Virus record (IMG/VR): IMGVR_UViG_3300001765_000097
Coordinates: 1 to 55,664 of that record
Length of the DNA stretch: 55,664 nucleotides
Source: a virus
Lineage: Duplodnaviria > Caudoviricetes
Reading direction: 5' to 3' (one strand)
Shown here: positions 2,295 to 28,116 of the stretch, one piece after another
Position numbering within the stretch: the first letter of the stretch is position 1
Layout of the letters: each line of letters opens with the position of its first letter
Position numbers and translations under genes: made by a program
The notes under the pieces: generated by a model
Databases searched by the model: none
What the model saw: the letters and a program-made list of their open reading frames with translations, nothing else
What the model was told of the DNA's origin: nothing

Positions 2295-4669
<2,375 letters not shown>

Positions 4670-4696: not shown

Positions 4697-5206
4697 ATGT
4701 TAAATCATTTCACTGAGTTAGATACAGGTTGCAATGACTATTATCCTGCAGTATACGTTATAATGTTTGAAAAAACAAATAAAATTTATGTGGGTGTAAC
4801 ATCTAATGCTTATAGACGTAGTCACAATGTTAGAACGTGTTTTAGTTATAACCGTACTCTTTCCAAAGCTTTACTTAATGAATACTCGAAATGTAAAGAA
4901 TATAAATTTCTTGTGTACAAAGCAAAATCTTTCGAAGAAGCTATTTTGGCTAAAAAAATAATTTTAGATTGTTATAAAGAAAGTGAATTATTATTAAATA
5001 AACGACTGGATCTTAATAATTTTAATTATTGGGGTTCTTGTACAAAAGAATACACATTTGTTTACGATAATGCAAGTAATTTAGAAAATACTAGTGTTTA
5101 TAATAATACTAGTATTTATGATAATAGTAGCGCTCAGCCACTAAATTCAATTGTTATAAATTACAAAATAAATAAACCTCCAAATACATCAATAATTAAT
5201 ATTTAA
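4697..5206 (+). CDS. GIY-YIG-like nuclease domain protein (possibly degenerate)
   Basis: AVYVIMFEKTNKIYVGVTSNAYRR matches GIY-X10-YIG plus the conserved Arg. Low-complexity N/S/T tail with 18-bp tandem repeats; no NUMOD repeats. Confidence 0.6.
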   Translation: MLNHFTELDTGCNDYYPAVYVIMFEKTNKIYVGVTSNAYRRSHNVRTCFSYNRTLSKALLNEYSKCKEYKFLVYKAKSFEEAILAKKIILDCYKESELLLNKRLDLNNFNYWGSCTKEYTFVYDNASNLENTSVYNNTSIYDNSSAQPLNSIVINYKINKPPNTSIINI

Positions 5207-12781: not shown

Positions 12782-12816
12782 ATTCCAGATTTTTTCAATC
12801 ATACATAATTAGATTG
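12782..12816 (+). promoter_or_regulatory. Early promoter P3
   Basis: ATTCCAGATTTTTTCAATCA, TACATAAT at 12802-12809, G at 12816. Confidence 0.7.
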
Positions 12817-12830
12817 GTATTAGTTTAATT

Positions 12831-12852
12831 AATGCTGCAATGCAGCGAAAGG
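12831..12852 (+). promoter_or_regulatory. Leader hairpin-SD element, copy 1
   Basis: AAT-GCTGC-AAT-GCAGC-GAAAGG, ending 7 nt before ATG 12860. Confidence 0.7.
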
Positions 12853-12859
12853 ATTTAGT

Positions 12860-13390
12860 ATGTTTGAAAACCTTTTGATCATGGTAAGATTGTTATTGGC
12901 AACATTGTCGAGCGCTGGTGTCAAAGTCAAGAAAATTGGCTTTGTTGGGGTGGATTATATCGAAGTTATTTTTGATAATAGAGATGATTATCCATCAGTG
13001 TTGGAAATAGCAAACGATGCAGATGTTCCAAAAAAGATTAACTTTACCGTTAGTGTCGCTGATGAAGAAGGTGACTACATGTATCGTGAGTTGTCATTCA
13101 TGAGAGACAGTGGAATGTGCAACGACGATGTTGTTCTTGCATTTGTGACTCTTATTGATATTGATAAACTCAAACCGGCGCCGGTTGAAATTGTCGCACC
13201 TGTCAAAGAAGACTATCATTTCTTCTTCACTAAATTGTGCCGGAAATGTAACGATGTATATTTCAGGAATGAAATTACAAAAGACGCATTTGAGAATCAA
13301 CTTGGTAACGATAATATTGATGTCATTTATGATGACCATTATAATCGACGCATTCAATTGATTAGTGTATGTGCAAAATGTTCTAGTTAA
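12860..13390 (+). CDS. Hypothetical early protein with C-terminal Zn ribbon
   Basis: CRKC..CAKC; has its own promoter, SD and terminator. Confidence 0.75.
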   Translation: MFENLLIMVRLLLATLSSAGVKVKKIGFVGVDYIEVIFDNRDDYPSVLEIANDADVPKKINFTVSVADEEGDYMYRELSFMRDSGMCNDDVVLAFVTLIDIDKLKPAPVEIVAPVKEDYHFFFTKLCRKCNDVYFRNEITKDAFENQLGNDNIDVIYDDHYNRRIQLISVCAKCSS

Positions 13391-13402
13391 AATAATGCAG
13401 AA

Positions 13403-13440
13403 TAATGCATGCATTCCCTTAATTGGGAATGCATGCATTA
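13403..13440. terminator. Bidirectional hairpin
   Basis: 16-bp perfect arms TAATGCATGCATTCCC / GGGAATGCATGCATTA followed by a T run; lies between convergent genes. Confidence 0.8.
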
Positions 13441-13454
13441 CATCCATTTTTTTT

Positions 13455-14732
13455 TTAAACTTGCTGAGCAAGCAATGTAACAGTCAAACCTTTTACATCG
13501 GCATCAATTGCAGCTGGCGCTTCAACAATATCAAAGGTGATTCTTTCGCCTTTAGATACCAATGTATCAACCATATTTGCATTTGGTGTAACAGAGTAAG
13601 TGGTTGCGTTTGATAAATAATTAATTACCATGTAAGCTCCACCGAACATGGAAACACCATTTACTTTAACATCAACTGTTAATTTAACCAGCGGATCCGT
13701 TGTGGCACCAAAATTGCCAACAAATAAATCCATCCAGATGTCTTTTACGTCTAAATCAAATGGAGCTACAATGTATGCTTTGTCAGCACCTGCAGCACAA
13801 ACTTCACCAATCGCGGTTAGTTGAGCGTTAAATGGGAACACCACTGTTGGCGCAGGCGTACCGGCAGGACCTTGTGGACCTGTAGCACCATCAGCGCCAG
13901 CAGGACCTTGTACACCATCAGCACCCGCTGGGCCTTGAGGACCTGCAGGACCTACTTCACCCTGAGGACCAGGAACATTAGATACGCCGTCAGCGCCAGC
14001 TGGTCCCTGAGGACCTGTAGCACCATCCGCACCTGCGGGCCCTTGAGGACCAACAGCACCGTCTGCTCCCGCAGGACCTTGTATACCATCAGCGCCAGCT
14101 GGACCAGCGAGACCTTGTTCACCTTGAATACCTTGAGGACCTGGCACTGTAGAATCTGCACCCGCAGCGCCAGCTGGACCTTGAGGACCAACAGCGCCAT
14201 CTGCACCCGCAGGACCCTGTGGTCCTGGTACGTTGCTAACTCCGTCAGCGCCAGCTGGACCCTGGGGACCTGTAGCACCGTCTGCACCAGCTGGACCTTG
14301 TTCACCTTGTGGACCAGGTACTACTGAGTCAGCACCTGCAGGGCCTTGGGGACCAGCAGGACCAGCAGGTCCTTGCATGCCGTCTGCACCAGTCAAACCT
14401 ATTGATCCTTCAGGTCCAGGAACTGTACTTACTGGACCCATCGGACCTTCAGGACCAGCAGGTCCTGCAACACCTTCAGGACCAATAGGTCCAGTTAAAC
14501 CATCAGCGCCAGCTGGACCTTGAGGACCCATTGGTCCTGATGAACCGACTAGGCTTAGCAACCATTCGCTTTGAGTACCTGTAAAACCAGCAGCGACTGC
14601 GATTTCATATGCACTCATATTAGCAGGTAAAGTGCTAACAGCTGTACTTTTGCTTACGCCACCTTGAACAATTTCAATTAGTTCTGCACCGGTGATTGCA
14701 CTGGCTGGGGGTAATTCTGATATTTTTGACAT
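13455..14732 (-). CDS. Collagen-like fibre protein
   Basis: About 230 aa of G-X-Y triplets ([10 protein letters not shown]). N-terminal KISELP and SAYEIAV..GF.GT.SEWL.SL motifs; C-terminal beta-rich domain. Confidence 0.9.
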
Positions 14733-14756
14733 AATTTAATCTCGATTTAAAAAAAG

Positions 14757-15287
14757 TTAATTAATTTCTCTGGGTAGACCGTTTTCAGTCAATCTCATGG
14801 ATCCGTTTTCAGTAGTTCTGAAATTAGTGGGTACCGCGTAATTGATTGACATATTTATATCGCCACTAATCCAAGCAGGATTATCGCGACTTACTCTAAA
14901 ACTAAAAGGAACTGTTGGGTTATCAATTCTTCTATTGATGACGTCAGCACTTACTAAACTTAAATCATGCTCTCTGTTTATATCATCGAGCACATCCCAA
15001 ACAGTTAATGGAAAGGATTTATATGTAGTGAAAGATTTACCATTCAATATATCATCTAGCATCAAACGCCTGTATATGAAACCATTTTCATCAGTGATTA
15101 TAGTGTCTTTACCATCACTGAAATCTACATTAATAAATGTATTTTCGTCATCTGTAATATCCACTCGCAAATCAAGCACTTTAGGTTTGCCTAACTTGAT
15201 TTTACTTTCTTCATATGCTACACCGCTGTAGCGTTCTATTTGATCTAAAGCAATTGCCTTAGATGTTTTTTTGTATTTAGTACTCAT
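14757..15287 (-). CDS. Probable virion structural/adaptor protein
   Basis: AAGGA SD; YRRL.L and N.AW.G motifs. C-terminal FRTTENGSMRLTENGLPREIN is shared with 30892..33498. Confidence 0.7.
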   Translation of the reverse strand: MSTKYKKTSKAIALDQIERYSGVAYEESKIKLGKPKVLDLRVDITDDENTFINVDFSDGKDTIITDENGFIYRRLMLDDILNGKSFTTYKSFPLTVWDVLDDINREHDLSLVSADVINRRIDNPTVPFSFRVSRDNPAWISGDINMSINYAVPTNFRTTENGSMRLTENGLPREIN

Positions 15288-15342
15288 GTTTTCCTTTAAG
15301 ATTATAAAGAATAAGTTGTCATATTATCTTACAACATATTTA

Positions 15343-15369
15343 CCTGTATTACAAATAATGTAATACAGG
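15343..15369 (-). terminator. Hairpin after helicase
   Basis: Arms CCTGTATTACA / TGTAATACAGG. Confidence 0.65.
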
Positions 15370-15380
15370 CAAACAGTGTT

Positions 15381-16916
15381 TTAAGTTGACATGAAAAACG
15401 GCACTTCATCGCCGTGACCTGAGCCAACTGTAGGTGCCCCAATCTTTTTCATATGTATAGCCGGTTTACCTAAGTCATCAGGTATAGGTCCTTTTGGTGG
15501 AAACTCATAAACGCAATACATGTCATCTTCAGAAATGACATCTACACCTCTATGCTTATCTCTTTGCAATGTTAGATAAGACACCTTGTTCAATTTTTCT
15601 ATATGCAAATAAACACCAACATCGTACTCTTGATCAATTTGTTTACTGCCACTGAAATAACCTCTACCTGGCAATAGTTTAACAAAATTCTGATGTCCAT
15701 CTCTAAGCAATTGTTTTGCATCAGTTGACAATTGATGAGGTGTGATCATGGTAATTTTTCTTGTTGAGAAAAAGTTACGAGTCCTCCTATATAGATCCCT
15801 CAACGCATGACCCATAGGCCCATCTTCACAACCGGTAGTAGGAATCATAGGTAAATAATCCACTACACATAAATGGATTTCATAACCGTTAGCTTCTAAT
15901 TCTAAAATATAATTTTGTAAATCTTTATATGTCCAACTGCTAGGATCTACCCTGAGTAATTTAATCTGATAACCATTGACTTGAAGTTTTTCTTTGACAT
16001 ACTTTGCCATTTCAACAGTCGATAATTCTCTGATGTCAGGTAGAACACCTGTCTCATTGAATACTAAATTCTGATACAAGAATTGCAAATTAGTGCTGAG
16101 TGAATCCTCAAAAGAAATTCTAAGTAATAACGGTTTCTTATTCGGATTGATCATTACAGGTTTATTGTAAATAGCAATCTGTTTAAAAAGAGTTAGTGTA
16201 AAACCGGTTTTAAATTTATGTTGAAGTGCAGGTAAGCACACCTGTTCACCTCGTCTAAATCCACCTTGAAGCATTGTATTTAAACCTTGCCATCCAGTGA
16301 TTAATAATCCACTGCAATCTGCCATAGCTTTAACTTCAGCGAATGCATCACTCAATCCACTGGTATCCCCGATATCTACACTAGATACTATAGCTGGGTC
16401 TCGTCTGCTGCTCTCAATTGCAAACGGTTCTAATTTAGTACAGAGATCATTTACAAACCCCCTTATACTTTTGATTTTATCACGGTGAAAACATATCGAT
16501 GAATTAGCTGCTTTAATTATCTTTAATATTTCGTTTTCCCTAAATGTATCATTTATGAATTTCCTTATGGATAGGACAGTTCTTTTCAGACTACCTTCAT
16601 CCATATCTTTTTCAATCTCTTGAGAAAAAGCTTCGTATAATTTATCATCGTTTAGACAGTTGACTCTTAACCTTTGCAGTATTTCATCTTTTTCATAAAT
16701 TGTATCGAAAGGATTACCACACATATATAGAGCAGTCTCTTTTAAAGCCTGCAACTCTATATGTCCGTGATTTAAACTAACTGATTCAGTTGGTAAAATA
16801 ATTGTCTCTAATATAGTGCGCACTAGATCGGCACTGTTTTCACTTTTCTCAGACAACAATCCTTCTCTATATAAAAGTGTGATAGCTTTTACTATAACTA
16901 ATTTTGGATCATTCAT
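15381..16916 (-). CDS. dnaB: DnaB-like replicative helicase (phiKZ gp118-like)
   Basis: TGWQGLN.ML.GGFRRGE, variant Walker A ALQHKFKT, ISFE, Walker B CVVDYL, TPHQLS, I.QE.D and R.KHRG arginine finger. Divergent from the capsid operon as in phiKZ. Confidence 0.88.
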   Translation of the reverse strand: MNDPKLVIVKAITLLYREGLLSEKSENSADLVRTILETIILPTESVSLNHGHIELQALKETALYMCGNPFDTIYEKDEILQRLRVNCLNDDKLYEAFSQEIEKDMDEGSLKRTVLSIRKFINDTFRENEILKIIKAANSSICFHRDKIKSIRGFVNDLCTKLEPFAIESSRRDPAIVSSVDIGDTSGLSDAFAEVKAMADCSGLLITGWQGLNTMLQGGFRRGEQVCLPALQHKFKTGFTLTLFKQIAIYNKPVMINPNKKPLLLRISFEDSLSTNLQFLYQNLVFNETGVLPDIRELSTVEMAKYVKEKLQVNGYQIKLLRVDPSSWTYKDLQNYILELEANGYEIHLCVVDYLPMIPTTGCEDGPMGHALRDLYRRTRNFFSTRKITMITPHQLSTDAKQLLRDGHQNFVKLLPGRGYFSGSKQIDQEYDVGVYLHIEKLNKVSYLTLQRDKHRGVDVISEDDMYCVYEFPPKGPIPDDLGKPAIHMKKIGAPTVGSGHGDEVPFFMST

Positions 16917-17015
16917 AATTGATTAATTTCCTTTTATTAATTAAAATTCTTTTTCAAAAGCTTTTCCTTTTGAACACAACATTAATAACAGTTATATTTT
17001 TTAAAGTGTAATTAA

Positions 17016-17019
17016 TATG
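17016..17019 (+). promoter_or_regulatory. Candidate late promoter (TATG) for the capsid operon
   Basis: TATG is the phiKZ late consensus and lies here in an AT-rich intergenic region 54 nt upstream of 17073. A 4-mer is weak evidence. Confidence 0.35.
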
Positions 17020-17072
17020 ACACGCGTTGGTGGCGCTATAATCTGAGTATATTTTTAAAATAGAAGGAAACT

Positions 17073-17564
17073 ATGAGTATTCATGTTGAAAAAAATGTAT
17101 TTTTGGTACCGTATTGGATAGTGAATACTGTAGAGAGAAATCGTCTTACATTGAACACTATTTTAGATCTAGAGAAACTCACCAGTATTACTAGTGCAGA
17201 AGATCTAGCTTTGACGTCTTTGCTTAATGAACATAGTGAGAAAATTTTTGGGATTAGCTCATATTCTCCATCCCTTTATACTAACTGGTATAAAGATAGC
17301 GTTAGTTGGGATAAATTCAATACACAAATTAAACCATTAGAGCCAATCGTGTCTAATGATTTAGAGAGTAGATTATTTAATGAATCTTCTCGTAATGAAA
17401 GATACCCCGTGCCTTTTGAAATTAAAGATGTTGATTCTAATACATTTTTGATTATTATCTATCCGGGGTTTTTTGGAGGGCCTGATTATAAACATCACCA
17501 ATTTAATATTACTAAAGAGTTATTAAAGCTATTCTATGTGTACGAATCGGCGCCAGATATATGA
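17073..17564 (+). CDS. Small virion-associated protein (phiKZ gp119 position)
   Basis: Syntenic between helicase and capsid; AAGGA SD. Confidence 0.7.
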   Translation: MSIHVEKNVFLVPYWIVNTVERNRLTLNTILDLEKLTSITSAEDLALTSLLNEHSEKIFGISSYSPSLYTNWYKDSVSWDKFNTQIKPLEPIVSNDLESRLFNESSRNERYPVPFEIKDVDSNTFLIIIYPGFFGGPDYKHHQFNITKELLKLFYVYESAPDI

Positions 17565-17707
17565 ATATTATATAAATCAATTGTGATGTAATATTAAAAT
17601 ATATAATCAATATTGTGTGCAGCTAAAGTGCAACAGAATTAAAACGCTGGGTAGTTTATTTTACTTTTCTAAATTTTTATATTCTTAACCGAAGGACAAC
17701 TTTCAAA

Positions 17708-19912
17708 ATGAAACATCAAAATCTCTTTACTAACCGTGGCATGTCGCCTCAAGTAGAAGTATCCCCATTGGCATTGGTTGTAGAATCATTGCAATCAGTG
17801 GTGAATCAAGGACCTGGTCAATTTGCTACACCTGAAGTAGCTAAGGCTGCCATGGCTCTAGAGAGCATGTCTCCAGATAAACAGTTTCAACTGAATACAG
17901 CTGTTACTAATCTGTCGAATGTTATTGATACTTGCTTGAAGACTTTGCCAGGTTTTGGTAAACTCAATGTGGCTCAAGAATCAGCAGCTATTGCAGCTGG
18001 CGTGATGGCTTCTGCACCACAGTCATATTTCATTAAACCCATTCAAACTGCTGGTTCTTTACAAGCAGCTGCATCGGGTACCAATACTACCGTGATCGGT
18101 AATAACGGTATCAATGGCGCAATGGAAAGCCGTGCATTTGCATTAGAAGCTTTTGATACAAAAGAAAACAAGAATGCCATGGTGTATTCAGTTGCTTACA
18201 ATATGCAAGCAGCTCGTCAAGACGAATTCGGTGAAGCCTTCTTCCCAACCGTAGTGGTTACACCTGACAATGTCGGTTTCATGGTATCTATCCGTCTGAT
18301 CTTCGTGCAAGATGAAGTTCGTCGCGAACTCAATGGCTCGTTAGACAAGTTTGGTCGCAAGAACGTTATCAAAGCCGTGATAGACGCAACAATCCTGCGT
18401 AACGATCAAACTAAGATTGTTCCTATCGTGCGTACCGGCGGCGGTGCTAATGATTCTACAGTTAATTTCGTAGCTGCTGCTGATGTGGCTCCCTACACTG
18501 TTACTTTAGATACACAACCTGTTGTGACTGCACCTTTAGCAGTTGGCAAGAAGTTCTCTCTGTTAGGTATTTCACAAACTGCTGCACTGTTAGCAACTGG
18601 TATCCTTGATAGCACCGACGCTATCGATTCAGCTGTTCGTTTGAGCGCAGTGTATGTTAAAGTTAAAGCCGATGCTACTAACCCAGCAGCTGTTGTTAAA
18701 TTTAACGTAGATAAGCTCCCACGCTTCAACTATGCAGTACAAGGTAACACTCGTTTGCTGCAATTGAACTTTGAATCAGACGCTTTGAAGGTTGTTTCAA
18801 CTACTAAGAAAATTGATGGTTCAGCCGTTCCTCAATTTGCAGCTTTGACTGACCACACTGTTCGTTTGAGCGCAGTGTATGTTAAAGTTAAAGCCGATGC
18901 TACTAACCCAGCAGCTGTTGTTAAATTTAACGTAGATAAGCTCCCACGCACAGTTGACGGCCAAATCATGGATCTGACTGCAGGTACAGGTGCTACTATT
19001 GCCGCTATTTTCGCTGGCGCTACTGTTATTGGTTACGACTTAGTCGCTTACCGTACCAATAGTAACCGTCGTCAACGTGGTCAGCTGATTGACACTCAAT
19101 ACGTCAATCATCTCTACACAGTGCCTCTGTTGCCTCCCATTACCGCTTTGCGTCCAGTGGGTGACACTGAAGCCAATGACAGCTCACTGTTATCAGCTTT
19201 GATTACAACTACACACATCCGTACCAGCAACGCTGCTGTGGGTGCTTTGCTTGACGCACGCGATTTCTTGAAAGACTTCGTAAGCGCTTCTGATGCAGCT
19301 ACTGATGCTCCAGAAATTCTAGGCGTTGCTCGTTATTTGGTATCACCAGCTTACGCTGAAGATACACTTGACACTGAGACACAAATTGATTCTCTGAAGT
19401 CATCTGACCGCGCTGAAGACATGGTTGCTTTGATTATCAACAAGATCCGTGACATGGCTTATCGCCTGTACACCACTTCTGGTTACAAGGCTGCTTGCGA
19501 TGCGTTGTTTGACGGTGCTGCTCCTAAGCCAATGGTTATTATCGGTACAGATCCAATTCTGAACCGTTACTTGACATTGAACGGCGACATGCGTCTATTG
19601 GGTGAATACTTCGATTACAAGCTAGTTTCTACACTGGACAGCCGTATGACTGGTAAACTCATCCTTACCTTCGGTATGGAAACCAGCTACAATTCTGGCG
19701 TGCCTAATCCTCTGCATTTCGGTGCAATGGCTTGGAAACCAGAACTGACACTGATGATGCCTATCGTTCGTAATGGCGCTACCACAATGGAGCTGACCGT
19801 ACAGCCTTCATTCCGTCACATTGTTTCATTGCCTGTGATGGGTTCACTCGATGTTGTTGGTATCCAAAACATCATTGCTGATAAGGCCGTAGTTCAGACG
19901 CATGTTGTATAG
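17708..19912 (+). CDS. Major capsid protein precursor (phiKZ gp120-like)
   Basis: 734 aa with YN..AARQDEFGEAFFPT, RTNSNRRQRGQL and PNPLHFG motifs. A-X-E protease sites (ALE 50-52, AQE 89-91, AME 138-140, ALE 145-147), codon usage of a highly expressed gene, and synteny. Confidence 0.93.
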   Translation: MKHQNLFTNRGMSPQVEVSPLALVVESLQSVVNQGPGQFATPEVAKAAMALESMSPDKQFQLNTAVTNLSNVIDTCLKTLPGFGKLNVAQESAAIAAGVMASAPQSYFIKPIQTAGSLQAAASGTNTTVIGNNGINGAMESRAFALEAFDTKENKNAMVYSVAYNMQAARQDEFGEAFFPTVVVTPDNVGFMVSIRLIFVQDEVRRELNGSLDKFGRKNVIKAVIDATILRNDQTKIVPIVRTGGGANDSTVNFVAAADVAPYTVTLDTQPVVTAPLAVGKKFSLLGISQTAALLATGILDSTDAIDSAVRLSAVYVKVKADATNPAAVVKFNVDKLPRFNYAVQGNTRLLQLNFESDALKVVSTTKKIDGSAVPQFAALTDHTVRLSAVYVKVKADATNPAAVVKFNVDKLPRTVDGQIMDLTAGTGATIAAIFAGATVIGYDLVAYRTNSNRRQRGQLIDTQYVNHLYTVPLLPPITALRPVGDTEANDSSLLSALITTTHIRTSNAAVGALLDARDFLKDFVSASDAATDAPEILGVARYLVSPAYAEDTLDTETQIDSLKSSDRAEDMVALIINKIRDMAYRLYTTSGYKAACDALFDGAAPKPMVIIGTDPILNRYLTLNGDMRLLGEYFDYKLVSTLDSRMTGKLILTFGMETSYNSGVPNPLHFGAMAWKPELTLMMPIVRNGATTMELTVQPSFRHIVSLPVMGSLDVVGIQNIIADKAVVQTHVV
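18633..18949 (+). repeat. Exact 92-bp direct repeat inside capsid gene (18633-18724 and 18858-18949)
   Basis: CTGTTCGTTTGAGCGCAG...GATAAGCTCCCACGC occurs twice, 225 bp apart and in frame (VRLSAVYVKVKADATNPAAVVKFNVDKLPR x2). Confidence 0.95.
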
Positions 19913-19950
19913 GTATACACTGTATTAACGGTTGCTATTCATTTTTAAAT

Positions 19951-19980
19951 CATAAAAAGGGATTAATTTCCCTTTTTATG
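19951..19980 (+). terminator. Terminator after capsid gene
   Basis: CATAAAAAGGGA-TTAATT-TCCCTTTTTATG. Confidence 0.8.
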
Positions 19981-19984
19981 CTCT

Positions 19985-21031: not shown

Positions 21032-21082
21032 TAAAGATACGGTGTAAAAAAAGATATCGCTACTGAATGAGTAGGTTATTTT

Positions 21083-21127
21083 CATAATCCCCTAGCTTAG
21101 CTCACAAGGCTTTGCTAGGGGATTATG
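21083..21127 (+). terminator. Long hairpin
   Basis: Arms CATAATCCCCTAGC / GCTAGGGGATTATG. Confidence 0.75.
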
Positions 21128-21131
21128 TTGT

Positions 21132-21168
21132 ATTCCAGATTTTTTTTCAGTCACATATACTAGAATTG
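21132..21168 (+). promoter_or_regulatory. Early promoter P4
   Basis: ATTCCAGA-T run-CAGTCA, CATATACT at 21154-21161, G at 21168. Confidence 0.75.
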
Positions 21169-21201
21169 AATAGGTATAGGAATATATCTAATTTATTTTA
21201 T

Positions 21202-21223
21202 AATGCTACACAGTAGCGAAAGG
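21202..21223 (+). promoter_or_regulatory. Leader hairpin-SD element, copy 2
   Basis: AAT-GCTAC-ACA-GTAGC-GAAAGG before ATG 21230. Confidence 0.75.
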
Positions 21224-21229
21224 TAAGAT

Positions 21230-21601
21230 ATGAATGCATCGACTTCAAAAGAACTATCGTTTGCCACTAAAATGGCATTGCTTCAGGGTAAGATAACTAC
21301 ATCTCCGATAGCAGACATTATCCTGGCCAGCATCAAACCACATTGGCCCGGCAGTTATGTAGAGGCAATCAAGGTCCAAGGTAATTGGCCGAAGAGTGCG
21401 ATGTGGGGGGTGTGCAAGGTTACGAACCACCGGAGTTTCTATAATAACGAGAGTCAAAGTAACCATTATTTCAACTCTAAAGAAGAGATGGAAGAATGGG
21501 TCGCGTCTATTGATCATGACCCAGAGGACTTTGCTGTTAAGTTGTGGATCTACGAATGGGATCTTGGCCCACAGTACCGCGACCTGCTTCAGCTTAGCTG
21601 A
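21230..21601 (+). CDS. Hypothetical early protein (visibly more GC-rich than flanks)
   Basis: Own promoter and SD, plus a downstream CCCG-GTGG-CGGG stem and T tract (21615-21641). Confidence 0.75.
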   Translation: MNASTSKELSFATKMALLQGKITTSPIADIILASIKPHWPGSYVEAIKVQGNWPKSAMWGVCKVTNHRSFYNNESQSNHYFNSKEEMEEWVASIDHDPEDFAVKLWIYEWDLGPQYRDLLQLS

Positions 21602-21645
21602 GTAGAAAAAATAACCCGGTGGCGGGCTCTATTTTTTTTTTCTTA

Positions 21646-21679
21646 ATCTAGATTTTTTCAGTCTTATATTACTGTAATG
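21646..21679 (+). promoter_or_regulatory. Early promoter P5
   Basis: ATCTAGATTTTTTCAGTCT, TATATTAC at 21665-21672, G at 21679. Confidence 0.8.
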
Positions 21680-21697
21680 AGATACTATCTATTAACC

Positions 21698-21721
21698 AAT
21701 GCAACTATGTTGCGAGAAAGG
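21698..21721 (+). promoter_or_regulatory. Leader hairpin-SD element, copy 3
   Basis: AAT-GCAAC-TAT-GTTGC-GAGAAAGG before ATG 21727. Confidence 0.75.
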
Positions 21722-21726
21722 TATTT

Positions 21727-21933
21727 ATGAAAGAGATTGCTTACACCGGACAGGTGATTGAAGAAATAAAATTTGGTTCACAGTGGGTGAAATGCCCTGT
21801 TTGTGAGTCTAATAATCTCATTAGTCTTAATGGGAATGCTTGGTTTGATAATACCATAAACAAGTATGTTCATTATGGTTGCTTATCTCAAGAGCGGTTA
21901 AATGAGATAAGTCTAAAAAAGACTTCTGTATGA
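21727..21933 (+). CDS. Small Zn-finger-like protein
   Basis: CPVC..H..C; 68 aa. Confidence 0.7.
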   Translation: MKEIAYTGQVIEEIKFGSQWVKCPVCESNNLISLNGNAWFDNTINKYVHYGCLSQERLNEISLKKTSV

Positions 21934-22008
21934 AAAAACAAAATACGCCGAGCCAAAAGAAGAATTCTCTTGATAGCATTCTGTAAAAAATAAATTTTGG
22001 TTTTGTAT

Positions 22009-22030
22009 AATGCTACATAGTAGCGAAAGG
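22009..22030 (+). promoter_or_regulatory. Leader hairpin-SD element, copy 4
   Basis: AAT-GCTAC-ATA-GTAGC-GAAAGG before ATG 22038. Confidence 0.75.
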
Positions 22031-22037
22031 AAATAAA

Positions 22038-22379
22038 ATGTTTGTAGTAACAGTGACAGTTGATGACGAAACATCATACCTTGCGATTGATGATCAGTCT
22101 GGCGGTTATCCTTATTGGAGCGATTCAATATCGAGAGCAAAGATTCATCATTCTTTTGATGAAGCCAATAAGTGGCTAGATAGTCCAGACTTTACAAAGG
22201 ATAATGTAATGTCTGATGGGGGAGTGTTTCCACCTAGCATGATTCATAGTGGGCTGAGGCTGAATTATGCTAAAAAGAGCGGAACAGGTGTCATTAGCAT
22301 AAAAAAGATTACATTCGAGAACAAGCTAGTGAAATATATTGGCGCAATCGTCAAACTTGGTAAACCGTATTCAATTTAA
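22038..22379 (+). CDS. Hypothetical early protein
   Basis: 113 aa; YLAID..SGGYPYW motif; strong SD. Confidence 0.75.
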   Translation: MFVVTVTVDDETSYLAIDDQSGGYPYWSDSISRAKIHHSFDEANKWLDSPDFTKDNVMSDGGVFPPSMIHSGLRLNYAKKSGTGVISIKKITFENKLVKYIGAIVKLGKPYSI

Positions 22380-22382
22380 GCA

Positions 22383-22420
22383 GCATATATGCCACACCTA
22401 TTAAGGTGTGGCATATATGC
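22383..22420 (+). terminator. Long hairpin
   Basis: 17-bp perfect arms GCATATATGCCACACCT / AGGTGTGGCATATATGC. Confidence 0.8.
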
Positions 22421-22430
22421 TATAATTATT

Positions 22431-22465
22431 TTTCTATATTTTTTTGATCACATATTACTACATTG
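22431..22465 (+). promoter_or_regulatory. Early promoter P6 (drives the RNAP-subunit operon)
   Basis: TTTCTATA-T run-GATCA, CATATTAC at 22451-22458, G at 22465. Confidence 0.75.
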
Positions 22466-22490
22466 GTATTAGTTTTTGGAGTATATAAAA

Positions 22491-23927
22491 ATGATAACAG
22501 ATGAGAAGATTCCTCCAGTGTTCTCTAATAGCAATATTGCTATTAGATTACATTCAGATTCAATGCGTACATTTTACGGCAATCCTTACAGTTCACAAAC
22601 AGCGTATAATCTACTAGAAGAATTAAAACAGATAGAATACACTGAAGAAACTTTCTATGTGAATTCAACATATAGAAATATATCGGTGATGGGTAGAAAT
22701 GGTTTAGCTGTCAACATACCTTATGTTTCCAGTTATAATACACAGGGTTTTATTATTAGAAAAATAATAAAACTAAAAGGGCACAGTTTAGCATCCGCGA
22801 TGGATGCTTTACAAAGCATTACACAGTTAGATAGTTTAGAATTAATAGAAGTAAAAAAAGTATTATCTGGTACAGATAGAAGATCTTTTATATTTACATC
22901 AATAATGATAGATTATCTAATCACATTAGATGATTTAAAATGTAAAGGTAATACACTTTACCATTATCAAACAGATCTAATGATATCTTTGAATGATACC
23001 ATTACCATTGATGCACATCCATACAGTTCTAGGTTTCTAGGGATAGGTACATTTGGAATTACAAATGATTACACTAATCAACAGGAATTAAATTTAAAGA
23101 TTAAATATGTTAATCATGATATAAATGCATCACCGGTATATTTAAATGTATTTGGTAAAGTGTTTACAGTGTTTCCACAAAGAGATGCACCTGCTAGAAA
23201 GTTGTATAGCGGTAAATCGGGTAATATTATATTTGAAGATTACTTGATATTCTTTTATTCTTCTAGAAACGATACGGAAGTTTTATCTGGCAACGGTGTC
23301 AGTGCGGTTAAAATGTCACTAGCAGAAGCCAGAGAAAATATTGGTCTTTATGATACATATCAAGAAGCTCAAAATTATGGAAACGTAGAGTTGACTAGAA
23401 AAGAAGAATTGTCGGCATTGAATCACAAGTTAGAAATATTAAAACAAAGTACTGCAATAGAGAAAAGCAGGTTGGATAAAGAAGATTTAATCAGAAAAGA
23501 AAAATTATTAGAAAAAGAGCATGCTTTAGAAATGCTTAAGAAAGAAACAGCAGAATTGAAACAAGACCTTGAGTTAGCTTCACAAAAATTAAATATACAA
23601 GTTTTAGAAAATAAACAAAAACAAACTTTGTTAGATACTAAACTTCAAGATCTTGATAATGAAAAAAGAATTTTGGAAATTAAAAGAAAAGATCAAGACG
23701 ATCGAATAGATAGAGAGAAGAAAGAATTCGAAGAAAAACTTAAACTTCTCAGAGACGAACATGATCATAGGTTAAAACAAGAATCGATGTACTGGAGAGA
23801 CTTCTACGAAAAGAGAAGTTATGAAAGAAAAGACACATCTGAAGTAGTTAAATTTATACCTGGTATACTTATTGGGGTAATTGGTATAGCCACAGCTGTT
23901 ATTAAAATGAGTCCAAATAAAGCTTAA
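22491..23927 (+). CDS. Conserved coiled-coil protein with C-terminal membrane anchor (phiKZ gp122 position)
   Basis: GGAG SD favours ATG 22491. Long E/K/L coiled coil, then RSYERKD.SE..KF.P and a hydrophobic tail; syntenic with the RNAP subunit. Confidence 0.75.
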   Translation: MITDEKIPPVFSNSNIAIRLHSDSMRTFYGNPYSSQTAYNLLEELKQIEYTEETFYVNSTYRNISVMGRNGLAVNIPYVSSYNTQGFIIRKIIKLKGHSLASAMDALQSITQLDSLELIEVKKVLSGTDRRSFIFTSIMIDYLITLDDLKCKGNTLYHYQTDLMISLNDTITIDAHPYSSRFLGIGTFGITNDYTNQQELNLKIKYVNHDINASPVYLNVFGKVFTVFPQRDAPARKLYSGKSGNIIFEDYLIFFYSSRNDTEVLSGNGVSAVKMSLAEARENIGLYDTYQEAQNYGNVELTRKEELSALNHKLEILKQSTAIEKSRLDKEDLIRKEKLLEKEHALEMLKKETAELKQDLELASQKLNIQVLENKQKQTLLDTKLQDLDNEKRILEIKRKDQDDRIDREKKEFEEKLKLLRDEHDHRLKQESMYWRDFYEKRSYERKDTSEVVKFIPGILIGVIGIATAVIKMSPNKA

Positions 23928-24006
23928 AAAAATATAAGCGTAATAAATAACTATAGGTACAATGTAAATTTACCTAAAACATATTTCCCCAAATTAAAGG
24001 ATAAAC

Positions 24007-25629
24007 GTGTTTCCTAAATCAATGCAAATGCTCATAGATGAAGCTACTCCAGATGTAAATCCAATATTGGCAAATGGTCTAGCTTGCACACATTTAAGAC
24101 AAGTGGAAGATTATGTAGACAGTATTTTTAGGTCAGCAGCTCAAGGTTTTCCACCAGGTATGTTGTATTTGGGTTCCAGGCGATGTACGCCTCAAGAAGA
24201 ATATTTCGAGTCTACAAAGAAAAAGGGAAGTCGCTGTGTTTACGATACAGCCCGCAGTGATGTTTACTTAATGGAGTATAAATTTAGTTATTTGGGTGAA
24301 GATTTACCGTCTAAATATATGTTACTGCCGTTTGTTAGCGATGCAGGCATTATCTTTTTAGGTGGAAGTAGATTTGTCATTTCTCCTATTTTGTCAGATA
24401 GAGTAATATCTGTAGGTATGACAAATGTGTTTGTTAGACTACTAAAAGCCAGACTCACATTTAATCGTACGGCTCAGCACTATATGGTTAACGGTGTAAG
24501 AGAAAGTGTACAAGTAGCATGGAGTGACATTTATAATGATAAGAAAAATGATTCTTCTCAGAAAACTACAGTTAAAGCAAACTGTACATTAGCACATTAC
24601 TTATTTTGTAAATATGGATTACATGAAACATTTAAACAGTTTGCAAACTGCACACCGGTTGTAGGTTTACCAGATACAATAAATGAGGAAAATTACCCAC
24701 CTAACGAATGGGTAATTTGCTATAGCGGTTGTTATATGTCACCTAATAAACCGAGAGGTTTTGGGAAATCGTATTATGAACCTAGTAGTATTGCATTAGC
24801 TATTCGTAAATCAGAATACACGTTAATGGTGAAAAATCTAGTAGGTGGATTTTTCTATTGCGTAGATTTCTTTCCTTCACACATAAAACCTGAGTATGTA
24901 AACCATAAAGAATTATGGATGTATTTACTCGGGCACATCATTTGGTCAGGTAACATTAATCGTGGTAAATTAGTTAATGACGTAACTGATCATATTGCGT
25001 CTTTGGACGAATACGTGGACGGTATAGTTTCATCTAAGTTAAAAGATATTGGTTTTCACTGCACAAACATTTATCAAATATTTGCATTGATTATCGATAA
25101 ATTTAATGATTGGTTATTATCGTCGGATGATAGAATTAATACGATGTATGATAAAGAACTCAGTATTCTTTATTATATTTGTTATGAAATTAGTAGCACA
25201 ATTTTCAAATTATATTTTAAACTTAAAGCCGCACAAAAGAAAGATTTAAATAGAAATAAAATCATTAACATCATGAACATGAATTTAAAGACAGGTTTGA
25301 TCTTTAAAATCACAAGAGAACATGGTGAGGTTACAACTACGTCAACATCTGGCGATAATAAAGCTTTGAAAACAACTTTACTATTAGTGCCCCAAAGTAG
25401 CTCTAGTAGAAATAAAAGTAAACGCGATAGATTAGCATTAGCTGATCCGGGCAAAAGATTAAATGCATCTATTGCTGAAGCTGGATCATATTCCGGCTTA
25501 CCTAAATCAGAACCAACTGGAAGAAGTAGATTAAACTTGCATATACAAATTTCACCATCCGGTTTACTTTTAAGAAACCCTAAATATTTAGAATTGATTA
25601 ATAATGTACAATCGATGATTAGGAGATAA
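24007..25629 (+). CDS. Non-virion RNA polymerase subunit, beta N-terminal-like (phiKZ gp123-like)
   Basis: 540 aa; LPFV.D.G...L.GS.F.ISP.L.D motif and C-terminal L.ASIAE.GS...LPKSEPTGR.RLN. Located just downstream of the capsid gene under an early promoter. Confidence 0.82.
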   Translation: MFPKSMQMLIDEATPDVNPILANGLACTHLRQVEDYVDSIFRSAAQGFPPGMLYLGSRRCTPQEEYFESTKKKGSRCVYDTARSDVYLMEYKFSYLGEDLPSKYMLLPFVSDAGIIFLGGSRFVISPILSDRVISVGMTNVFVRLLKARLTFNRTAQHYMVNGVRESVQVAWSDIYNDKKNDSSQKTTVKANCTLAHYLFCKYGLHETFKQFANCTPVVGLPDTINEENYPPNEWVICYSGCYMSPNKPRGFGKSYYEPSSIALAIRKSEYTLMVKNLVGGFFYCVDFFPSHIKPEYVNHKELWMYLLGHIIWSGNINRGKLVNDVTDHIASLDEYVDGIVSSKLKDIGFHCTNIYQIFALIIDKFNDWLLSSDDRINTMYDKELSILYYICYEISSTIFKLYFKLKAAQKKDLNRNKIINIMNMNLKTGLIFKITREHGEVTTTSTSGDNKALKTTLLLVPQSSSSRNKSKRDRLALADPGKRLNASIAEAGSYSGLPKSEPTGRSRLNLHIQISPSGLLLRNPKYLELINNVQSMIRR

Positions 25630-25662
25630 CCAAAATCTTTATGATCATATATCATTAACATG
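25630..25662 (+). promoter_or_regulatory. Early promoter P7
   Basis: TTTATGATCA, TATATCAT at 25648-25655, G at 25662. Confidence 0.6.
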
Positions 25663-25685
25663 TGTAGTACATAAAAGGAAATAAA

Positions 25686-27656
25686 ATGTCTTATCCAATA
25701 CCGTTACCGTATTCTACGGTGCAGCTACAGGCGCCGTTTGTACAGGTAAGTCCAGGATCATTTCCAGGATCATTGCCTGTAGTAGTGAATCAAAATTTAA
25801 TGCAATTCCTGCCGTTGATTGGAACGGCCTGTATCGACGTAGTGCAAAATCGCGCACAAGAAAACCCATTGAGGGTGTTTCTTTACAATCAGATGCGCGA
25901 TAATGTATTTAATAACCAATCTTTCTACGAGTTAGTTAAATTAACTGCAATATATGCGGACATGTGTTTGCAAAGAGGTATATTTACAAATCCAACTGAT
26001 GCTATTTACGATTCAGCTAATAAAATGACTGAAATGGTTTGTGCAGAAAATATGAGGAATGTTAACGGTTTGGCATCAGTGTTGGATCCACTGTTTGTCA
26101 ATAAAGTACAGAATACATTAATTAAAGCTCAAAACGTACGACAAGAACTCGGTAACTTTTTAAATGGTATAAGTGGATTTAATCAGCCGCAATATCCACA
26201 ACAAAATAATCATTTCCCTCAAGCTGTTTACCCATCAGTAATGCCACCTCCACCCTATCAAAGGTCTTTCCCTCAACAGCAACAGCCTCAGCAAAATAAT
26301 ATTTACGGAAATAATTTAAATAGCCAGCCTGTATTCTCAAATAACAATCAAAATTCATTTACCCGTCCTAATCAACAACCGTCAATTGGAAGCTCATTCT
26401 TAGTTAAGGATAAAGTAGAAGAACCGTTGCCTATTAAAATTGAAACAATCGTGCCACCGCCTCCAGTAGCTACAGTGGTCCCTGCTTTAGCCGATAAATT
26501 TGGAGATAAAACAGAATGGGTTCCATCAAAAGAATATCCATTTAATTTAGCATTTGATCCAAACAGGCAAGAGTTATGTTATTTAGTAGAACCAGGTAAA
26601 CCAACTATACCTTTCACAAAAGAATTAACGCCGGAGAAATTAATGGAGCGCTATAAGCATTTCAAATCTATAACAGTACCTGTTACAACGCAGACTTTAG
26701 TGGAAAGTGAAAAAGAAGCTAATGCTATTAGAAGTGAAAAATTTGCTCGTAACATTAACGGTGATTGTATTTCTAATAAACAAATTGAGGTAGATATCAT
26801 GATTGCAGGATTACCGGAAAGTACAGAAAATGTAGAACTACTGACAGAAAAAGAAAAAAATGTAATAGGTGTAGGCGATCAAGAAATTTGGCGCGATTGC
26901 GATTTGATGCTATTGGCTAAAAAGAAAGAAAATGTGCAGAACATCGCATACAGTTCATGTGCGTATGTGAATGACCCACTAGTTACACTATCGTCTCCAA
27001 AACCGTTAGCTGATAAACTATTATCATGCGAAGATTTATTTACAGCATTTAATATTCTAAAAACAGCTAAAGCAGCGGCGATTAGGTCAGATAACCCTAT
27101 TGATGAATTAACAATTGTTAATTATTTTAATATGCGTCTGACAGAACGTATTAATAGGTTTACACAAAACCAACTGTGTTTAGCAATTAATATTGATTCA
27201 TTCATCACTGAAGGTGTAGAATTAATTGATTACATTGAAAAGAAATTTGGTGATAAGTTTAGTGATCCGCTACGCTTGAGTCAAAAGAAAATCATTGAAG
27301 ACTGTTGCACATATGCAACTGATGGCTACGAGAAATCTTTAACTGGTTTATATCTCAATAGTGATATGCCTTTTAGACCAAACGTAACGTTCTTTTACAG
27401 CTTAGATTATTTTGTTTCATTACATTGTTTTAGTATCGATTTGCGATTTGAAATCCCTGACGATAAATGCTCTGTAGCTATCTTTGAAAATAATGTACCT
27501 ATTCTTTATAAGCTAGCAAACCACATTTATAAAGAAGCAGATACTTATTCGTATACATTTAACCGATGTCTGATTAGGACTTTAGATCGTAAGATCTATA
27601 TGTTAAACAGGTCAGTTATTGATAAAGACACATATCTAGTTAACGTAGTTAAATGA
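25686..27656 (+). CDS. Conserved jumbo-phage protein with P/Q/N-rich disordered linker
   Basis: 656 aa, AAGGA SD; N.LR.F.YN N-domain and IDSF..E C-domain; follows the RNAP subunit. Confidence 0.75.
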   Translation: MSYPIPLPYSTVQLQAPFVQVSPGSFPGSLPVVVNQNLMQFLPLIGTACIDVVQNRAQENPLRVFLYNQMRDNVFNNQSFYELVKLTAIYADMCLQRGIFTNPTDAIYDSANKMTEMVCAENMRNVNGLASVLDPLFVNKVQNTLIKAQNVRQELGNFLNGISGFNQPQYPQQNNHFPQAVYPSVMPPPPYQRSFPQQQQPQQNNIYGNNLNSQPVFSNNNQNSFTRPNQQPSIGSSFLVKDKVEEPLPIKIETIVPPPPVATVVPALADKFGDKTEWVPSKEYPFNLAFDPNRQELCYLVEPGKPTIPFTKELTPEKLMERYKHFKSITVPVTTQTLVESEKEANAIRSEKFARNINGDCISNKQIEVDIMIAGLPESTENVELLTEKEKNVIGVGDQEIWRDCDLMLLAKKKENVQNIAYSSCAYVNDPLVTLSSPKPLADKLLSCEDLFTAFNILKTAKAAAIRSDNPIDELTIVNYFNMRLTERINRFTQNQLCLAINIDSFITEGVELIDYIEKKFGDKFSDPLRLSQKKIIEDCCTYATDGYEKSLTGLYLNSDMPFRPNVTFFYSLDYFVSLHCFSIDLRFEIPDDKCSVAIFENNVPILYKLANHIYKEADTYSYTFNRCLIRTLDRKIYMLNRSVIDKDTYLVNVVK

Positions 27657-27660
27657 TGAA

Positions 27661-27690
27661 ATAATTGAGAAGGGACGCCTTCTCAATTAT
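27661..27690 (+). terminator. Hairpin terminator
   Basis: ATAATTGAGAAGG-GACG-CCTTCTCAATTAT. Confidence 0.75.
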
Positions 27691-27704
27691 GCTGTAAAAA
27701 TCGT

Positions 27705-27739
27705 ATTCCAGATTTTTTCAGTCACATATGACTAAATTG
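27705..27739 (+). promoter_or_regulatory. Early promoter P8
   Basis: ATTCCAGATTTTTTCAGTCA, CATATGAC at 27725-27732, G at 27739; nearly identical to P4. Confidence 0.75.
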
Positions 27740-27794
27740 AATTAGTATAGGAATATATTAACTTGGGTATTAAAATGCTCCCATTAGCATTTAA

Positions 27795-27814
27795 TTGTAC
27801 TGCAGTACAAAGGA
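27795..27814 (+). promoter_or_regulatory. Variant leader hairpin-SD element, copy 5
   Basis: Perfect 16-nt palindrome TTGTACTGCAGTACAA abutting AGGA before ATG 27821. Confidence 0.6.
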
Positions 27815-27820
27815 AACATC

Positions 27821-28048
27821 ATGTCAGAAGCAACACAAACCACAGCTACACCCGCCGTTACCCAAGAGAGCAGCCTCGCTGCCCAAGTCGCCGCTGTTCG
27901 CGGCACATCGTCTATCTGGGATGACGTGAAAGACGCGTCCCGCACAGGCCTTAACCTTGGAGTGACAATCGGTGTCGCGGTCGTTATCGTCTCGGTTGTC
28001 GGAGCTGCTTGCAGCTACCTTCCAAACGCTAACCGTCCAGCGGCATAA
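27821..28048 (+). CDS. Small single-pass membrane protein (GC-rich)
   Basis: Hydrophobic GLNLGVTIGVAVVIVSVVGAAC segment with GxxxG motifs; own promoter, SD and terminators. Confidence 0.75.
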   Translation: MSEATQTTATPAVTQESSLAAQVAAVRGTSSIWDDVKDASRTGLNLGVTIGVAVVIVSVVGAACSYLPNANRPAA

Positions 28049-28056
28049 GCGGCATA

Positions 28057-28113
28057 GATCCACTGATCCTTAAACAGATCAGTGGATCGAAAATAAACCT
28101 TCGGGTTTATTTT
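28057..28113. terminator. Tandem hairpins between convergent genes
   Basis: GATCCACTGATC / GATCAGTGGATC (28057-28088) and AAAATAAACC-TTCG-GGTTTATTTT (28090-28113, cUUCGg loop). Confidence 0.8.
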
Positions 28114-28116
28114 TTT

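Follow-up and report, generated by a model that had tools for sequence, protein, structure and literature searches.

Hundreds of small genes in jumbo phages have no known function, and their gain, loss and expression are poorly understood. The closest described counterparts of the locus analysed here are the promoter early stem-loops (PeSLs) of T4-type phages, composites of a terminator and a promoter which end in a Shine-Dalgarno (SD) sequence and an ATG, lie around ORFans and mediate their insertion, deletion or replacement, as described in PMC2839356 and PMC4122927. In turn, the early operons of every jumbo phage that encodes RNA polymerases (RNAPs) are preceded by an AT-rich motif particular to that phage, which is ~10 nt long, has its centre near -10 and is read by the virion RNAP (PMC7598289). 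Here, we analyse a stretch of 55,664 bp (IMG/VR record IMGVR_UViG_3300001765_000097, covered in its entirety and hereafter referred to as the window), which its gene content places in an uncultured phiKZ-like jumbo phage, and describe a short RNA hairpin that directly abuts the SD sequence of small genes, together with the promoter and terminator modules between which these genes are exchanged.

The modules resemble PeSLs in that a terminator stem-loop and an early promoter form a repeated intergenic composite ending at the SD and ATG of the next gene (window positions 21089-21162, 21613-21673, 22382-22459 and 27665-27733). Both kinds of repeats surround ORFans located between core genes, and in both cases related phages differ by the insertion, deletion and replacement of the flanked genes. 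An earlier inspection of the window from its letters alone (hereafter, the sequence-only reading) had invoked PeSLs as an analogue, which is apt: the composites and the replacement of the cargo genes match those described for T4-type phages (PMC2839356, PMC4122927). There are differences, however. The promoter is not sigma-70-like and instead resembles the early motifs of jumbo-phage virion RNAPs, the phage is phiKZ-like rather than T4-like, and the SD-abutting hairpin is located downstream of the promoter, within the transcript, and does not correspond to the terminator stem-loop of PeSLs. Of the 'undescribed system' proposed in the same reading, only the SD-abutting hairpin appears to be new, the cassette logic being that of PeSLs in a jumbo-phage form. 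The locus brings the PeSL logic, in which terminator/promoter modules swap ORFans, into a phiKZ-like phage with an apparent virion-RNAP promoter, and adds to it a structure-conserved RNA hairpin placed directly against the ribosome-binding site (RBS) of the swapped genes.

The hairpin-SD element and its covariation

The element has the layout AAU-[5-bp stem, 3-nt loop]-G-AAAGG upstream of an ATG and is present in the window in four plus-strand copies. The pattern AATGCNNCNNNGNNGCGARA, which leaves the two inner stem pairs unconstrained, matched the window four times, always on the plus strand (positions 12831, 21202, 21698 and 22009), and was not matched in any of 100 dinucleotide shuffles. 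The free inner pairs are complementary in all four copies, with the stems reading GCTGC/GCAGC, GCTAC/GTAGC (twice) and GCAAC/GTTGC and the loops AAT, ACA, TAT and ATA; the ATG of the gene that follows (12860, 21230, 21727 and 22038, respectively) is located 12-13 nt past the stem. Both the compensatory stem changes in four hairpins and the palindromic variant before gene 27821, as pointed out in the sequence-only reading, were thus confirmed. The five hairpins of the window are as follows.

12831-12852, + strand: hairpin-SD copy 1; U12833.G12847, stem 12834-12838/12842-12846, loop AAU, AAAGG at 12848-12852, ATG at 12860; 47 bits, E=3.6e-9; -7.1 kcal/mol
21202-21223, + strand: hairpin-SD copy 2; stem 21205-21209/21213-21217, loop ACA, ATG at 21230; 38.1 bits
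21698-21721, + strand: hairpin-SD copy 3; stem 21701-21705/21709-21713, loop UAU, then G-AGAAAGG, ATG at 21727; 37.6 bits
22009-22030, + strand: hairpin-SD copy 4; stem 22012-22016/22020-22024, loop AUA, ATG at 22038; 41.2 bits; no promoter repeat, second cistron of its unit
27795-27813, + strand: variant hairpin (fifth copy); palindrome 27795-27810, TTGTAC-tgca-GTACAA, with a 6-bp stem and a 4-nt loop, overlapping AAAGG; ATG at 27821; -4.4 kcal/mol

Folded alone, the five hairpins reach -4.4 to -7.1 kcal/mol, and four of the five persist in the minimum-free-energy fold of longer contexts. In-context folding yields unpaired probabilities of 0.02-0.08 for the stem and 0.93 for the loop. The purine run, which had been counted as part of the element in the form (GA)GAAAGG, is mostly the ordinary SD of the phage, AAAGGA being its usual SD and standing upstream of many core genes as well; the distinctive feature is the hairpin and its zero-gap position. 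The window contains no Rfam family at the gathering score and, therefore, the hairpin is a member of no described Rfam family.

For comparison, relatives of the phage were retrieved as syntenic contigs with the capsid protein; these include G001/L001 (89% identity, 135 kb), L002 (71%) and L061 (85%, from another collection), along with more distant ones. Collinearity between the window and G001 extends from ~3 to 69 kb, with a nucleotide identity of 65%-79%. Contig G003 has no core gene in common with the window, yet its regulatory repeats are up to 98.4% identical to those of the window (over 63 nt), so that it may come from a different region of this genome or of a sister genome. A covariance model trained on 10 canonical copies of the hairpin was used to scan 433 kb of the window and its relatives. 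Apart from the training copies, it recovered three new ones at E<0.01 (L002 3440-3469, L057 8494-8529 and L046 15946-15984) and a further one in L088, from yet another sample; within the window, only the four copies were found (E<=1.8e-6), with the next match at E=0.5. Variants with other stems were added by a structure-only scan and by reading behind promoter repeats. The resulting census comprises 23 instances, five in the window and 18 in related contigs, with 15 distinct stems and 13 loop sequences of 3-6 nt. All 23 lie on the sense strand upstream of an open reading frame (ORF), with zero gap to the SD and, in every listed case, 12-15 nt between the hairpin end and the start codon. U and G flank the stem in 16 of the 23 instances; in the variant hairpins, the 5' flank varies and the AAU is lost. 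Identical stems also precede unrelated genes, as in the pairs 21205/22012 of the window and 74460/71085 of G003, and at 12834 of the window and in L088.

Among the 10 canonical copies, 100% of the alignment cells are paired and both sides change in four of the six pairs. The covariation score is 0.600, compared with 0.305 +/- 0.052 in shuffles, none of 500 of which reached the observed value, and sliding the partner by 1-3 columns lowers the score to at most 0.226. RNAalifold recovered the same 5-bp helix from the canonical copies, whereas a MAFFT alignment of the 18 instances first collected misaligned the stems with 4-nt loops and was excluded from the counting. An orthologous locus offers an independent case: the G001 orthologue of gene 12860 (39% identity, E=1e-36), found through gene order, is preceded by TGTAC-tgtt-GTACA abutting GAAAGG, where the window has GCTGC-aat-GCAGC, and this replaced but still paired stem is of the same TGTAC/GTACA type as that of the hairpin at 27795. 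Furthermore, the stems of G002 93555 and G002 101103 contain G.U pairs, which would be A.C mismatches on the opposite strand. The confinement to the sense strand and the G.U pairs imply that the structure belongs to the RNA. The covarying structure claimed in the sequence-only reading is, accordingly, a sense-strand RNA structure maintained by compensatory change.

Restriction to early accessory genes

The genomic context of the hairpin was assessed across 440 genes called in the window, G001-G003, L002 and L061, 35 of which have a promoter repeat <=160 nt upstream and were marked as early-promoter genes blind to the hairpins; small genes missed by the gene caller, such as 27821, are outside these counts. 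An SD-abutting hairpin of >=4 bp precedes 12 of the 35 early-promoter genes and only five of the 405 others (Fisher p=4e-11), and the segment from -40 to -10 folds more stably in the former (median -2.1 vs. -0.9 kcal/mol, Mann-Whitney p=2.4e-4). Two of the five exceptions are second cistrons of early units (window 22038 and G003 70501), and two look mis-called, with starts inside genes. The early genes devoid of the hairpin are mostly large and conserved, with the ATG only 28-34 nt from the repeat. This distribution agrees with the previously noted absence of the element before core genes and its confinement to small accessory early genes.

Beyond these contigs, the covariance model had no matches in Burkholderia phage FLC9, the best cultured capsid relative (46%), and only weak ones in six metagenome capsid loci (E=0.46 and 4.6). 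The strict pattern matched 33 stretches of IMG/VR, mostly by chance: the one found in G004, a complete record of 271 kb, falls at the terminus of a GC-rich coding region and has no relation to the element, and those in L016 and L035 belong to a different, tandem hairpin repeat. Literature searches returned no description of the hairpin. Taken together, the hairpin is a genuine small RNA motif that seems not to have been described before and is restricted to a single uncultured clade.

Separately, positions 25638-25685 of the window, upstream of the conserved 656-aa gene 25686, carry a weaker look-alike of the promoter repeat (TTTATGATCATATATCAT) together with a 4-bp, AU-rich hairpin (ATGT-gtagt-ACAT) that abuts AAAAGG; this is possibly a degenerate member of the family ahead of a core gene.

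Promoter repeats, leaders and terminators

Four of the five hairpin genes of the window are preceded by the repeat ATTCCAGATTTTTTCA(G/A)TC..ATAT.ACT, at ~12782, 21132, 21643 and 27705, in line with the near-identical promoters reported for four of the five in the sequence-only reading. The modules around the hairpin genes are listed below; they include the terminators which that reading had described as closing each block.

12782-12810, + strand: early-promoter repeat P1 (ATTCCAGATTTTTTCAATCATACATAATT), a fuzzy consensus match, conserved at the orthologous place in L001
13403-13440, + strand: terminator with a 16-bp stem-loop, closing the 12860 unit between convergent genes
21089-21131, + strand: stem-loop CCCCTAGC...GCTAGGGG followed by ATTATGTTGT, the terminator half of the module ahead of P4, conserved in L001 and L061
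21132-21162, + strand: early-promoter repeat P4, 87.7% identical to G001 over 21050-21178
21166-21201, + strand: leader module GAATAGGTATAGGAATATATCTAAT..., common to the P8, G003 and L088 copies, with a small hairpin of its own predicted
21613-21641, + strand: intrinsic terminator AACCCGGTGGCGGGCTCT with a T-run, the same behind differing cargo in G001 and L061
21643-21673, + strand: early-promoter repeat P5, matching the repeat consensus
22382-22421, + strand: terminator with an 18-bp stem-loop, closing the cassette block
22428-22459, + strand: early-promoter repeat without hairpin, 31 nt upstream of the conserved 478-aa gene at 22491
27665-27695, + strand: stem-loop TTGAGAAGG-gacg-CCTTCTCAA with TTATGCTGT behind it, forming the terminator part of the P8 module; an equivalent exists in L001
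27705-27733, + strand: early-promoter repeat P8, sharing 98.4% identity with a G003 copy across 63 nt
28059-28118, + strand: two stem-loops, the second with a T-run, closing the 27821 unit; read directly

The repeat is also found without the hairpin, before genes 22491 (copy at ~22428), 40559 and 1457 (copy at ~1306), and a similar copy precedes 9402. Given the hairpin-less repeat at ~22428 and the hairpin at 22009 without a repeat, promoter and hairpin are separable, independent modules. At <=1 mismatch, the core promoter pattern has eight matches in the window, all on the plus strand, against 2.97 expected, and four exact copies stand before genes. By contrast, sigma-70-like sites are not enriched (69 found vs. 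64.4 expected), and the repeat ATTCCAGATTTTTTCAGTC..ATAT.ACT contains no TTGACA/TATAAT pair. A short A(T/A)TG(A/G) motif, conserved 3-7 nt downstream of the repeat, plausibly marks the transcription start region. The commonest class has 49-55 nt between the end of the repeat and the ATG, which would place the start of the hairpin near +16 to +20.

The early promoters of phiKZ contain TATATTAC. We infer that the T-rich repeat is a phiKZ-type virion-RNAP early promoter: here, too, a conserved AT-rich motif stands before early units, in a phage with a PhiKZ capsid and a divergent DnaB (PMC7598289), although the promoter sequence is specific to this lineage and the start site is only predicted. 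The stem-loops before P4 and P8 end, instead of in a T-run, in the tails ATTATGTTGT and TTATGCTGT, that is, TTATG(T/C)TGT, as does that of L061 (TTTATGTTGT); these tails fit the tail ...YTTATKYYGT of the phiKZ terminator motif (PMC10914365).

The common leader of P4 and P8 noted in the sequence-only reading, GAAT(A/T)(G/A)GTATAGGAATATAT, is present at 21166-21187 and 27737-27758. Leaders contain additional predicted structures. The common GGTATAGGAATATATC leader (21170-21189) would fold on itself, an extra hairpin, AAATGCT-cccatt-AGCATTT, lies at 27773-27792, upstream of the 27795 hairpin, and the relatives possess other recurrent leader hairpins (ACAGTA...TACTGT and TGCA-gtggt-TGCA).

Cargo genes and their exchange

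The genes behind the hairpins are small and have few relatives. None of those in the window has a Pfam family, and the PHROG matches amount to a single weak one at most (22038). They are listed here together with the adjacent homing-endonuclease gene.

12860-13390, + strand: cargo gene, 176 aa; no Pfam or PHROG family; G001 orthologue at 39% identity
19985-21031, + strand: HNH homing-endonuclease gene directly behind the terminator of the capsid gene; absent at the locus in G001/L001 and L061
21230-21601, + strand: cargo gene, 123 aa, GC 0.46, an ORFan with, besides its own protein, two homologues at 64%-65% identity among 5.8 billion proteins
21727-21933, + strand: cargo gene, 68 aa; no homologue in G001-G005
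22038-22379, + strand: cargo gene, 113 aa; no homologue in G001-G005; one weak PHROG match
27821-28048, + strand: cargo gene, 75 aa, GC 0.57; no homologue in G001-G005; C-terminal stretch hydrophobic by eye only

Gene 21230 likewise lacks a homologue in G001-G005. Two of the cargo genes had been noted as GC-richer than their surroundings, and their GC contents of 0.46 and 0.57 indeed exceed both the 0.35-0.39 of the other three and the 0.347 of the window.

Replacement of the cargo is most evident past the capsid gene. In the window, the order at this locus is the HNH gene; the stem-loop, P4, hairpin, 123-aa gene and terminator AACCCGGTGGCGGGCTCT-T(n); P5, hairpin and 68-aa gene; a hairpin and the 113-aa gene; and a terminator and promoter followed by the conserved 478-aa gene. 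In G001, the stem-loop, promoter, first bases of the leader and terminator are the same but enclose a different, GC-rich 82-aa gene without an abutting hairpin, followed by other small ORFs, and in L061 a third, 91-aa gene lies between the same modules. Thus, three unrelated genes occupy equivalent positions, and the promoter and terminator repeats do surround replaceable cargo, as the sequence-only reading had claimed. Contigs of relatives from two runs show the joint 19887->21077, which skips the HNH gene and identifies the latter as a recent mobile insertion, to judge from the contigs. One relative's contig contains two further joints, one from promoter repeat to terminator (21145->21606) and the other from promoter repeat to promoter repeat (21636->22429, with seven ambiguous bases).

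The break points are only partly those foreseen in the sequence-only reading, which had suggested a test for junctions at the SD or ATG. At orthologous loci, homology to G001 extends over 21050-21178 and 21607-21673 of the window and breaks in the leader past the promoter and in the terminator. It is only between paralogous modules, namely 21130-21224 of the window and G003, that the similarity (83%-86% identity) extends across the promoter, leader and hairpin as far as the SD, where it stops.

Exchange may also extend to parts of the proteins. Residues 121-175 of the 176-aa protein, a C-terminal CxxC...CxxC region, match the N-terminus (residues 14-67) of the L002 protein encoded at 3469-4038, itself located behind a canonical hairpin, which points to domain shuffling among the cargo genes.

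Possible functions of the hairpin

Beyond the observed anatomy, covariation, strandedness, restriction to early accessory genes and replacement of the cargo, every step in the mode of action of the hairpin is inferred. Small accessory early genes would be expressed from standard modules composed, in order, of a terminator stem-loop, a T-rich early promoter, an AU-rich leader, the short RNA hairpin and an SD that reads (G)AAAGG, with the ATG 12-15 nt past the hairpin. The virion RNAP would read the promoter, and the terminator/promoter repeats would provide the homology for swapping cargo genes in a PeSL-like manner. Within such modules, we tentatively favour, at somewhat less than an even chance, a role of the hairpin as a cis-acting part of a standard translation-initiation region, involved in ribosome docking or mRNA protection. 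Given its zero gap to the SD, the hairpin could constitute the 5' boundary of the RBS and might stack on the helix between SD and anti-SD; were the AU-rich leader trimmed off, it could also become a 5' stem-loop that blocks decay. What stays constant is a short helix of any sequence, an A/U-rich loop of 3-6 nt, the zero gap to (G)AAAGG and the 12-15 nt to the start codon, and this fixed geometry, combined with variable loop, stem and 5' flank, fits a physical role in cis better than a site for a sequence-specific protein.

The 16S rRNAs of many bacteria have a 3' tail complementary to AGAAAGG, and the STAB-SD sequence of Gram-positive bacteria resembles GAAAGGAGG. Structures in the 5' untranslated region or a strong SD, as in 5' stem-loops and STAB-SD, block 5'-end-dependent decay in Gram-positive bacteria; for instance, ribosomes initiating at the strong SD of the hbs mRNA block RNase J1 (PMC5737220). 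For the hairpin described here such a role is only proposed; it differs from these stabilizers in not being located at the presumed primary 5' end. If the hairpin tunes translation or mRNA lifetime, it would represent a compact, portable part for early expression and a marker by which accessory early genes of uncultured jumbo phages could be located. Should it have no measurable effect, the finding amounts to a PeSL-like repeat family in a new group of phages.

Several points weigh against a role in ribosome docking or mRNA protection. Among the runs listed with the stretch, none is of RNA, and the contigs compared are DNA. The predicted accessibility of the SD (-12..-7) is 0.48 in 15 hairpin genes and 0.50 in 403 others (p=0.83), so that a simple insulator effect is not visible in silico; over -15..+3, it is lower with the hairpin (0.41 vs. 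0.49) because the stem falls within that range. The hairpin begins ~16-45 nt past the presumed start and could be a 5'-terminal protector only if the leader were trimmed, and the hairpins are weak (-3.4 to -7.1 kcal/mol). A purely physical role also leaves unexplained the AAUGC...GCG common to the canonical copies, which may reflect recent copying or a binding site. Finally, most instances beyond the window were picked for pairing, and the pairing figures lean towards structure; evidence free of this bias comes from the unconstrained inner pairs (4/4 in the window and 2/2 in G002 and G003), the orthologous locus and the contrast between early and other genes.

Recognition of the hairpin in trans can be envisaged in two ways. 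The hairpin and SD could form the operator or target of a phage RNA-binding protein, a translational repressor or an endoribonuclease that silences an accessory early regulon at the early-to-middle switch; this is the main rival reading, though a less likely one. The same element does precede many unrelated early genes and no core gene, in a fixed position with zero gap to the SD, with AAU conserved 5' of the stem and U...G flanks in 16/23 instances, and T4 provides precedents in the gp43 operator, a hairpin plus sequence overlapping the RBS of gene 43, and in RegB, which cuts the SD of early mRNAs (PMC3014915). However, gp43 regulates a single gene and requires conserved loop bases (UAAC), as do the known hairpin-binding phage proteins, according to the same source, whereas here many genes are involved, the 13 loops of 3-6 nt and 15 stem sequences vary and the AAU flank is lost in the variants. 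RegB, for its part, needs GGAG/U and no hairpin (PMC3014915), in contrast to the hairpin plus AAAGG observed here, and its GGAG core is present in just one of the 23 instances. Genes for RegB (PF10715) and RegA (PF01818) were not found in G000-G003, which is uninformative, given that these records are fragments (21%-51% complete) and the control genomes gave no match either. Alternatively, the hairpin might be the address of a post-transcriptional regulon, whereby a phage factor or an early-modified host ribosome recognizes the helix stacked on AAAGG and boosts, times or shuts off translation of the cargo. We regard this as unlikely; were it true, newly acquired cargo would at once come under phage control, providing nucleus-forming jumbo phages with a plug-and-play expression slot for captured genes.

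Other explanations dispense with recognition of the RNA. The hairpin could be a palindrome that hitch-hikes in a recombining repeat, or a recombination or cleavage site in DNA used for cassette exchange, as might be suggested by the identical stems before unrelated genes, the promoter-leader-hairpin-SD stretch that is repeated between loci and ends at the SD, and the frequency of homing endonuclease genes nearby. Yet the 15 different stems all still pair, an orthologous stem has been wholly replaced without loss of pairing, both the strictly sense orientation and the G.U pairs are as expected of RNA rather than duplex DNA, and the break points lie in the promoter repeats, leader and terminator, with none in the hairpin. 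This explanation is, thus, very unlikely, the site for DNA recombination being disfavoured by the strand asymmetry and the observed break points. Even less probable is that the AAUG at the foot of the stem represents a promoter of the non-virion RNAP (nvRNAP) that overlaps the start site, like the phiKZ late T(-3)ATG(+1), and yields a second class of transcripts that begin with the hairpin as a true 5' protector. The phiKZ late promoter indeed consists of the four nucleotides TATG, the G being +1, and is influenced by the sequence downstream (PMC7598289, PMC12809450); ATG with G as the first stem base is found in 15 of 23 instances, and the copy at 22009 lacks an early promoter. However, as described for phiKZ, all four bases are required, and only three of the 15 feet read TATG, the remaining 12 being AATG (11) or CATG (1); eight of the 23 hairpins have no ATG at the foot at all, and no such element precedes any structural gene.

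Two further candidates were rejected. The ATG of AATGC opens frames of 7-8 codons (12832-12858 and 21203-21226) that end at or just before the main ATG, but upstream ORFs were dropped from consideration since 8/23 instances have no ATG and the frames have no SD; they are probably meaningless. The DNA hairpin promoters of the N4 type have a 5-7 bp stem and a 3-nt loop; here, transcription beginning ~11 nt downstream would start within the SD, and it is the sense strand that carries the G.U pairs.

The phage and other genes of the window

The window (34.7% GC; CheckV completeness, 21%) encodes a PhiKZ-type major capsid protein (17708-19912; PF25620, E=4e-173), a divergent DnaB (PF20307; 15381-16916, minus strand), a phrog_2943 'polymerase' (24007-25629), virion proteins, collagen-like fibres and several homing endonucleases. 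A search with the capsid protein matched 231 phage records, all at <60% identity, with Burkholderia phage FLC9 as the best, and megablast of the window against GenBank phages returned no near-identical DNA. It is these features, namely the PhiKZ capsid, divergent DnaB, 'polymerase', distant capsid relatives and absence of megablast matches, that identify the window as a fragment of an uncultured phiKZ-like jumbo phage.

Three more genes resemble homing endonucleases of phrog_314 (4697-5206, 40559-41389 and 42367-43326); gene 40559 has its own early-promoter repeat 34 nt upstream, and an HNH homologue in G002 is likewise located behind such a repeat. The DnaB-like helicase gene is intact in the window and split by a ~1.8-kb insert in L001, L002 and L004. 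In L001 (5891-9206), tblastn with the helicase yields pieces 1-391 and 386-511 with an HNH match or HNH-like ORF in between, and the insert in the three relatives looks like an intron- or intein-like invasion. Finally, positions 38828-39128 of the window, within gene 38447-39808, match G002 1-1924 and G003 17.6-19.1 kb at many offsets ~120 nt apart, a pattern indicative of a domain in tandem repeats within genes of the structural region.

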